DNA of 64,000 nucleotides, taken from Candidatus Moraniibacteriota bacterium. GTDB taxonomy: Bacteria > Patescibacteriota > Minisyncoccia > Moranbacterales > GWC2-37-73. Below, one piece after another: positions 34,010-34,115 of the stretch (positions within the stretch are counted from its first letter, which is position 1; every line of letters begins with the position of its first letter). The stretch spans positions 35,949-99,948 of the forward strand of contig JAAXUC010000001.1 in the NCBI GenBank assembly GCA_013336225.1, read 5' to 3'. The position numbers and the translations under genes were made by a program. A model generated the notes under the pieces. The model ran no database searches. It was given only the letters and a program-made list of their open reading frames with translations, and was not told the origin of the DNA.

Positions 34010-34115
34010 GCTTTAGCTATTTCCTCTTTCGGCACGCTCGCAGTCGAAGAACTATGACTGCTTCGCTAAGAGTTCGCTGTCGCTCTCTATTGCCTCAAAA
34101 GAAAATAGCTAAAGC
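34010..34115. repeat. MITE-like GC-rich element (family G) with 13-nt perfect terminal inverted repeats GCTTTAGCTATTT / AAATAGCTAAAGC
   Basis: The internal sequence TTCCTCTTTCGGCACGCTCGCA ... CTTCGCTAAGAGTTCGCTGTCGCTC.CTATTGCCTCAAAAGAAAA is shared with 61634-61810, and its ends are shared with 59496-59677. Confidence 0.6.

Follow-up and report, generated by a model that had tools for sequence, protein, structure and literature searches.

The genomes of CPR bacteria are very small and densely packed with genes, and little repetitive DNA is thought to be present in them. The stretch analysed here, referred to as the window (64,000 nucleotides of contig JAAXUC010000001.1 from a Candidatus Moraniibacteriota bacterium), contains three GC-rich intergenic elements with similar ends, which a first-pass annotation made from the sequence alone had described as MITE-like. 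This raises the question of whether the elements are mobile repeats, structured nucleic acids selected for a function, or the trace of a local duplication. The evidence presented below indicates that they belong to a family of small, hairpin-forming mobile repeats that has many copies, has not been described before and was found exclusively in Moranbacteria-type CPR bacteria, and we consider it reasonably probable that they are lineage-specific, non-autonomous, MITE-like elements of these bacteria.

Three structured elements between genes of the window

The three elements, all on the + strand, were found where the first-pass annotation had placed them, and both stable folds and family models confirmed that they are real (Table 1). 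Their boundaries had to be revised: when the pairing T and A tracts at the ends are included, each core is longer than the 106, 182 and 177 nt assigned at first, and the third element extends well beyond its core on both sides. The first, c1, is located between the terminator of a cold-shock gene (csp, 33689-33892) and rsgA (34202-35266). The second, c2, starts 23 nt past the stop codon of nrdA (56855-59470) and is followed 220 nt further on by nrdB (59896-60939), the identities of both nrd genes being confirmed by Pfam. The third, c3, is located 3' of the terminator of an FKBP-type gene (61011-61538), between this gene and a convergent gene encoding a type II/IV secretion ATPase (T2SSE family, PF00437). 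As RNA, c1, c2 and c3 fold into a long closing stem with internal hairpins, with z-scores of -5.5, -5.8 and -6.2, respectively, and none of 200 shuffled sequences was as stable; full-length c3 also folds as a single structure. The elements are small (cores of 118-189 nt, full-length copies of about 200-260 nt), below the limit of about 400 bp for a MITE, and open reading frames across the copies are short and not conserved. The claim that they are far more GC-rich than the surrounding DNA holds for the flanking intergenic DNA (25-31% GC, compared with 41-46% in the elements and 55% in the inner part of c1), whereas the window as a whole has 39.6%.

Table 1. Positions and parts of the three elements and of a related sequence in the window
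Feature	Position	Strand	Description	Basis
Copy c1	34004-34121	+	118 nt; subfamily A, canonical core of about 118 nt	
c1 P1 stem	34006-34034 paired with 34091-34119	+		RNA fold
c1 P2 hairpin	34040-34061	+		RNA fold
c1 P3 hairpin	34069-34088	+		RNA fold
Copy c2, core	59493-59676	+	184 nt; subfamily B, nrdA-nrdB spacer	
c2 insertion module	59563-59643	+	81 nt, P3 region; 2-3 extra hairpins	Insert in R2 alignment
Copy c3, core	61628-61816	+	189 nt; subfamily A with 72-nt module	
c3 insertion module	about 61680-61751	+	72 nt, P2 loop	Local alignment to model R1
Full-length c3	61589-61848	+	Core plus outer inverted repeat	
c3 left outer arm	61589-61608	+	GGTATGCGAAATACAGTGTT, degenerate	Pairs with right arm in fold of 61586-61856; comparison with arm consensus
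c3 right outer arm	61828-61848	+	Well preserved; reverse complement GATCACACGAAATACATGC fits arm consensus GGATCACACGCAATACATGG	Pattern match and fold
Solitary arm-like sequence	59800-59818	+	In loop of hairpin 59765-59843; reverse complement GGTCACACGCGACAA	Equals L136 left arm at 15 of 15 positions

Two subfamilies and a modular architecture

The three copies are not equally similar to one another. As shown by their alignment, which covers 62 nt at 90% and 36 nt at 89% identity, c1 and c3 are clearly homologous, and c2 has in common with them only about 22 nt at the left end and about 18 nt at the right end. A covariance model of subfamily A (R1) gave 123 bits for c1 (E 1e-25) and 102 bits for c3, and a second model (R2), which was built solely from short subfamily B copies without the insertion, gave 48.8 bits for c2 (E 2e-9) and 29.4 bits for c1. 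Because the model of subfamily B also recovers c1, the two subfamilies belong together. They have the junction boxes in common, and their P2 and P3 stems are completely different. Short subfamily B homologues of c2 are present in other genomes, which are the same genomes that carry subfamily A, and a B copy is sometimes only 30 nt from an A copy. Such close A-type/B-type pairs in opposite orientation, about 30 nt apart, were observed at L068 7131-7247 (-) with 7279-7396 (+) and at L155 2194-2312 (+) with 2338-2457 (-).

It had been proposed that the copies differ in length by internal insertions, and this proved correct in a specific way, in that the insertions are discrete modules. Copy c3 differs from the canonical form by a 72-nt module in the loop of P2, and this long form is also found in L116 and L030, while c2 is a subfamily B copy with an 81-nt module in P3, which recurs at L191 607-676 and L201 902-974. 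Both modules were found elsewhere inside cores, beside cores, or alone, which shows that the family is modular and suggests that these genomes contain a broader collection of modular GC-rich hairpins between genes. Modules of the c2/c3 type are also located at L148 5992-6053 and L193 2113-2168, and a tandem A-type pair with an insertion module in between is located at L201 724-839 and 975-1090.

Anatomy and covariation of the core

The canonical, c1-like core of about 118 nt consists of the closing stem P1, the junction GGCACGCT, the hairpin P2, the linker (T)CGCT and the hairpin P3, whose loop contains CTGTCGC. P1 has up to 26 pairs, of which the outer two thirds are free in sequence and the inner part is almost invariant (TTTCC-TTTTT-YGGC opposite GCC-TC-AAAAG-AAA, including a conserved C opposite A). 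The unpaired boxes GGCACGCT, (T)CGCT, CTGTCGC and ATTG/ATGG-GCC are invariant across both subfamilies, and the mismatched and bulged positions in the core are also conserved. In contrast to the boxes, P2 takes three or more forms that are entirely different (GCAATC/GATTGC, TTGGCC/GGCCAA and TTTTGGAT/ATCCAAAA), and P3 is variable but always paired (GAGY/GCTC, CGTCC/GGATG, TTGATTGC/GCAATCAA and AGTTG/CAACT). Among 26 seed copies, two-sided changes were found in 22 of the 34 modelled pairs, with 91.5% of cells paired, and among 57 distinct metagenome copies in 26 of the 34 pairs, with 88.7% of cells paired. No shuffle out of 500 matched this covariation in either set, and pairing fell to 40-57% when one strand was slid by 1-3 columns. 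P2 was paired in 98.8% of cells, with all six of its pairs covarying. Conservation peaks in the interior and at the junctions, and the outer part of P1 is the most variable and yet still paired.

These results change the reading of the ends. The 13-26-nt "terminal inverted repeats" of the first-pass annotation are the closing helix of the internal structure; they are not flanked by a duplication, and the true termini, of about 20 bp, are located further out.

Copy number, host range and novelty

When one genome per species was scanned by exact match for the common left end and chance matches without the right end were discarded, about 30 true copies were found on many contigs of a few CPR bins (LBRX01, JAQTLF01, CAYVME01, DNVR01, LBTZ01 and DASVYU01). 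The bins with true copies are labelled Moranbacteria/Moraniibacteriota, Parcubacteria or Patescibacteria, with two labelled Bdellovibrionales. A scan of metagenomes together with covariance-model searches added about 60 copies, giving a total of about 90, of which 85 non-redundant copies were analysed. The expectation that further copies should exist was thus borne out. At least nine copies are located on one 484-kb metagenome contig, and the density is roughly one copy per 20-50 kb, with three in the 64-kb window. Neighbouring copies are separated by ordinary housekeeping genes. Within a single genome the copies are almost identical and have uncompensated mismatches. A short-read contig from the same organism as the window begins within c2 and breaks off within c3, which is expected where repeats interrupt short-read assembly.

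The two bins labelled "uncultured Bdellovibrionales", CAYVME01 (L013, L025, L029, L030, L034, L041, L068, L074) and CAZAJN01 (L066, L103), both carry many copies. The label of CAYVME01 is probably wrong, because over 1.8 kb this bin (L068) is 83% identical in nucleotide sequence to a Moraniibacteriota bin (L044).

A scan of viral contigs gave two matches, both due to chance, and no model match. In a search of the window against Rfam 15, only tRNAs reached the gathering score, and relaxing E up to 10 gave only generic miRNA-precursor hairpins far below threshold. No description of these elements was found in the literature on repeats or MITEs in Moranbacteria or CPR bacteria.

Outer arms and target duplications

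In several genomes, a ~20-bp inverted repeat, GGNTCAYACGCAAYAYATGG(TT), is found 10-20 nt outside P1 on both sides of the core. Such outer arms are present on about 12-14 of the 85 copies, or approximately one in six, including c3; a recognisable pair of arms is absent from c1 and c2. In most full-length copies, the 8 bp immediately outside the arms are direct repeats, identical at 8 of 8 positions in three copies and at 7 of 8 in about four more. The mean flank identity was 4.9 of 8, compared with 3.1 when the flanks were randomly re-paired, and only 1 of 5000 shuffles reached 4.9. The duplications are AT-rich. The proposal that target-site duplications should be sought at each copy thus gave a divided answer, with 8-bp repeats outside the arms of full-length copies but no signal above random pairing directly at the P1/core boundary and no clean 8-bp duplication at the flanks of c3. 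For subfamily B, a search by eye found no target duplication. When about 0.9 Mb of related loci was searched for arms without a core, the one lone match was inside a glycosyltransferase gene and was due to chance.

A nearly perfect long hairpin (59765-59843), which is missing from the nrdA-nrdB spacer of L191, is located just upstream of nrdB in the window. The solitary arm-like stretch in the loop of this hairpin (Table 1) may have been left behind by another full-length element or by the right arm of c2.

Insertion polymorphism and search for a transposase

Comparison of empty and filled sites required close relatives. The species-level pairs L044/L068 and L051/window were uninformative, as their spacers no longer align, and closer relatives were therefore selected by means of Csp and nrdB. 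Five relatives encoding an identical Csp were compared at the csp-rsgA spacer: L120, like the window, has a family member there, and in L119 and L121 the site is empty. The member in L120 is at the same spot as c1 and has a different P2. The spacer of L118 contains unrelated sequence: compared with L119, it has an unrelated insertion of ~170 nt (about 2790-2955) that lies between the csp terminator region and the start codon of rsgA, and the csp flanks are nearly identical. The csp-rsgA spacer appears to be a hot spot for several kinds of insertion.

In L191, whose NrdB is 96% identical to that of the window, c3 is missing downstream of the FKBP gene, and the nrdA-nrdB spacer contains an A-type core instead of the B-type c2, with a remnant of the 3' arm of c2 retained downstream of the A-type core. 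Both the window and L191 keep a sense-oriented hairpin element between nrdA and nrdB. The first-pass annotation had suggested that the copy in this spacer could modulate the relative expression of the two genes. The exchange of one member for another in L191 points to turnover, or at most to a generic effect of a hairpin, and argues against a finely tuned nrd regulator; a specific role in nrd expression is unsupported. In CAYVME01 (L025 276-6991), nrdB and the FKBP gene, which are 72 nt apart in the window (60939-61011), are separated by 6.7 kb encoding a 1451-aa beta-helix/Ig-like surface protein and a CAP-domain protein and including a family copy at 6056-6172.

The absence of a transposase from the window, as originally noted, was confirmed, in that no Pfam transposase or integrase domain was found in 60 scanned ORFs. 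Transposase domains were likewise absent from the genes between neighbouring copies and from the 6.7-kb L025 segment, and the Y1_Tnp domain in particular from the window ORFs and the genes between neighbouring copies. The suggested search for an autonomous parent was also negative: neither a transposase with matching ends in the window or in about 0.9 Mb of related loci, nor distant arms bracketing a transposase gene in these loci, could be found. An autonomous partner is for this reason hypothetical. The non-autonomous, MITE-like character proposed for the elements is otherwise upheld by about 90 dispersed non-coding copies, by insertion polymorphism, and by the 8-bp duplications on full-length copies.

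GC-rich segments next to tRNA genes

The first-pass annotation had also proposed that the elements form one larger family with GC-rich segments adjacent to tRNA genes in the window (35309-35510 and 35815-35990). This was not supported, as local alignment stayed within the range of shuffled sequences and neither R1, R2 nor blastn gave a match between these segments and the repeat family. The tRNA-adjacent segments are a separate set, which is also conserved. Homologues are located beside tRNA genes on other Moranbacteria contigs, at L183 4439-4548 (tRNA-Lys) and at L173 874-1010 and L108 4405-4471 (tRNA-Glu). On the - strand, segment 35815-35990 terminates in 18 nt that repeat the 3' end of tRNA-Lys (35833-35850 = 35988-36005), and segment 35309-35510 is delimited by a direct repeat of 24 nt (35285-35308 and 35483-35506). 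The segments could have been left by tRNA-targeted integration, or they could be structured elements linked to tRNA genes.

A model for mobility and persistence

If the elements are MITE-like repeats, a complete element would be about 200-260 bp long, with ~20-bp terminal inverted repeats GGNTCAYACGCAAYAYATGG around a core of about 118 nt that can fold on either strand, P1 closing P2 and P3. Full-length copies would be moved in trans by a transposase encoded elsewhere, and because of the 8-bp AT-rich target duplications we infer that this hypothetical partner is a DDE-type enzyme making 8-bp staggered cuts. Most copies would come to lie just downstream of genes. Once a copy is inserted, its outer arms may decay or be lost while the core persists, with helices kept by compensatory change. 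Extra hairpin modules could then be inserted into the loops of P2 or P3, and members may replace one another at one spacer, probably by recombination through the conserved core segments. Most copies, being in sense inside transcription units, are probably transcribed as very stable 3' UTR or intercistronic hairpins, including the copy between nrdA and nrdB, and such hairpins could influence the processing or stability of mRNA in the manner of ERIC, REP and Correia elements. For the arm-less copies (approximately 70 of the 85, c1 and c2 among them), past transposition is suggested only by homology with the full-length members.

Two features stand against plain decay after insertion: the outer part of P1 varies widely among the copies of one genome and yet stays paired, and the interior is better conserved than the ends. 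These features fit a structure required for mobility, a single-stranded DNA (ssDNA) mechanism tied to replication, or post-insertion selection on an RNA or protein-binding structure. In general terms, the core might be more than a transposon's passenger, namely a functional structured nucleic acid on which selection continues long after decay of the transposon ends, either a CPR-specific protein-binding site or a replication-strand-specific ssDNA substrate of an unrecognised recombinase, in which case the boxes GGCACGCT, CTGTCGC and ATTGGCC and the covarying helices could mark that site or substrate. We regard this as a doubtful proposition; if true, the core would be a new REPIN-like or attC-like system in minimal-genome bacteria.

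Orientation, strand and alternative explanations

The copies are intergenic. They are located a median of 36 nt past the preceding stop codon, and the next start follows at about 97 nt. Where both neighbouring genes point the same way, 42 copies are in sense and 11 in antisense orientation (p 2e-5), while 17 copies are in convergent and 4 in divergent spacers. In 71 of the 85 copies, the strand of the element is the one richer in G, and of the 15 loci at which skew and gene direction can be separated, a small sample, 14 follow the skew, including all six antisense copies. The orientation bias thus tracks GC skew, or the direction of replication, at least as well as it tracks transcription, and since skew confounds orientation, the sense bias is no proof of RNA function.

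One explanation of this pattern is that the core is a structured element that folds as ssDNA on the lagging-strand template and is moved or recombined by an HUH/Y1 transposase, as in REPIN-RAYT systems and the IS200/IS605-derived PATE, or by a tyrosine recombinase, as in attC, while the arms and the 8-bp duplications belong to a second, classical MITE that captured a core. The skew (71:14 overall, 14:1 in the separable loci) is consistent with this explanation, as is the same orientation of 8 of 9 copies on the 484-kb contig. Furthermore, both strands fold equally well with DNA parameters, wobble pairs do not favour either strand (32 G.U compared with 26 A.C), and the structure is conserved, down to its mismatches and bulges, in a core that has no target duplication and whose outer P1 is free in sequence. 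In REPINs, compensatory changes are likewise found across the hairpin of an extragenic element, and for these it has been argued that structure is a requirement for mobility and proposed that folding occurs in ssDNA (PMC3116915). However, in 0.9 Mb the arms never occur without the core, except for one arm-like remnant, so that the two parts behave as one element. In addition, the ends of REPINs are conserved and their middle is variable, which is the reverse of what is found here, the elements have neither a GTAG-type REP motif nor the R'/R'' boxes of attC, no RAYT, IS200-type or integrase domain was found in the window, and skew was separated from gene direction at only 15 loci. We regard this ssDNA explanation as unlikely.

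Alternatively, the core could be a functional structured RNA, either a cis-acting 3'-UTR or intercistronic element or a small RNA, that is selected in each copy, mobility being merely the means of its spread (an exapted repeat). Strong covariation in P1 and P2, a P3 that varies but is always paired, unpaired boxes that are invariant in both subfamilies, and retention of the core while the arms are lost would all be expected of such an RNA, as would the sense bias of 42:11, the short distance from stop codons, and the retention of some member between nrdA and nrdB in two relatives. In contrast, there was no Rfam match, and scans for promoters and terminators found none within or next to the copies. 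The wobble test showed no RNA strand preference. In 76 of 81 copies it is the antisense RNA that folds better, because the conserved C.A oppositions become G.U on that strand; this folding result contradicts a simple co-transcribed sense-RNA function, although neither strand test is regarded as decisive. Moreover, near-identical copies with uncompensated mismatches resemble those of recent bursts, sites are filled or empty among relatives, and the sense bias is confounded with replication direction. Selection on a functional RNA in every copy is distinctly unlikely.

Finally, the similarity might stem from duplication of a local segment, or the three hairpins might resemble one another by chance, which would be in keeping with only three copies in the window and with the match of c2 to c1 and c3 at its ends only. 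This explanation has next to no probability, as it is refuted by the many copies outside the window (about 90, in unrelated gene contexts) and by the recovery of the window copies with both covariance models (E <= 1e-9).

Comparison with known repeats

The mobile repeats proposed here resemble Correia/NEMIS elements of Neisseria, ERIC/IRU of enterobacteria, RUP of pneumococcus and bcr1 of the Bacillus cereus group, which are non-coding, intergenic, 100-260 bp long and present in many copies. With Correia, ERIC, RUP and bcr1 they also have in common terminal inverted repeats, short AT-rich target duplications and long stable hairpins. Size variants of ERIC arise by internal insertions, as is the case here. 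However, there is no sequence similarity to any of these four groups, and the duplication is 8 bp long instead of TA, as in Correia and RUP, or 5 bp, as in bcr1. A modular construction is also known from BOX elements and BIMEs, which are modular mosaic repeats with modules strung in a row. The 72-nt and 81-nt inserts are comparable to such modules, but the sequences are unrelated and the modules of the present family sit in the loops of a fixed scaffold.

Integron attC sites are similar in length (57-141 nt), in conservation of structure over sequence, in having conserved unpaired positions, and in an orientation linked to the replication strand. Unlike attC, the present elements have no R''/R' sites (RYYYAAC/GTTRRRY), no cassette arrays and, in the window, no integrase, and are single copies between housekeeping genes; their ends read TTTTTG...CAAAAA, with no GTTRRRY.

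Known MITEs with terminal inverted repeats and target duplications fold into long hairpins, and bcr1 shows compensatory changes that preserve its structure (PMC3184786). The present family differs from such hairpin MITEs in that the interior is best conserved and the terminal repeats are lost in most copies, in that it comprises two subfamilies with common junction boxes and different P2 and P3, and in that its hosts are CPR bacteria with very small genomes. The likeness to REPINs includes extragenic hairpins of about 100 nt, tens to hundreds of copies, compensatory changes, and also persistence over long periods and formation of higher-order clusters (PMC3116915). In contrast, REPINs are conserved at the ends and variable in the spacer, lack a target duplication, and flank a RAYT gene present in single copy, while the elements described here have variable ends, a conserved centre and 8-bp duplications on full-length copies, with no RAYT seen.

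Significance

The family adds a new member to a known class of selfish DNA; it is not a new kind of system. In practical terms, its copies break short-read assemblies of these organisms and are a ready marker for strain typing and for spotting mislabelled bins. They also imply an active transposase encoded elsewhere. With a core that is better conserved than its ends, compensatory change and invariant loops, the family is a reasonable candidate for an exapted RNA or ssDNA structure, and the copy between nrdA and nrdB is a concrete place to ask whether such hairpins shape operon expression in an uncultured lineage.
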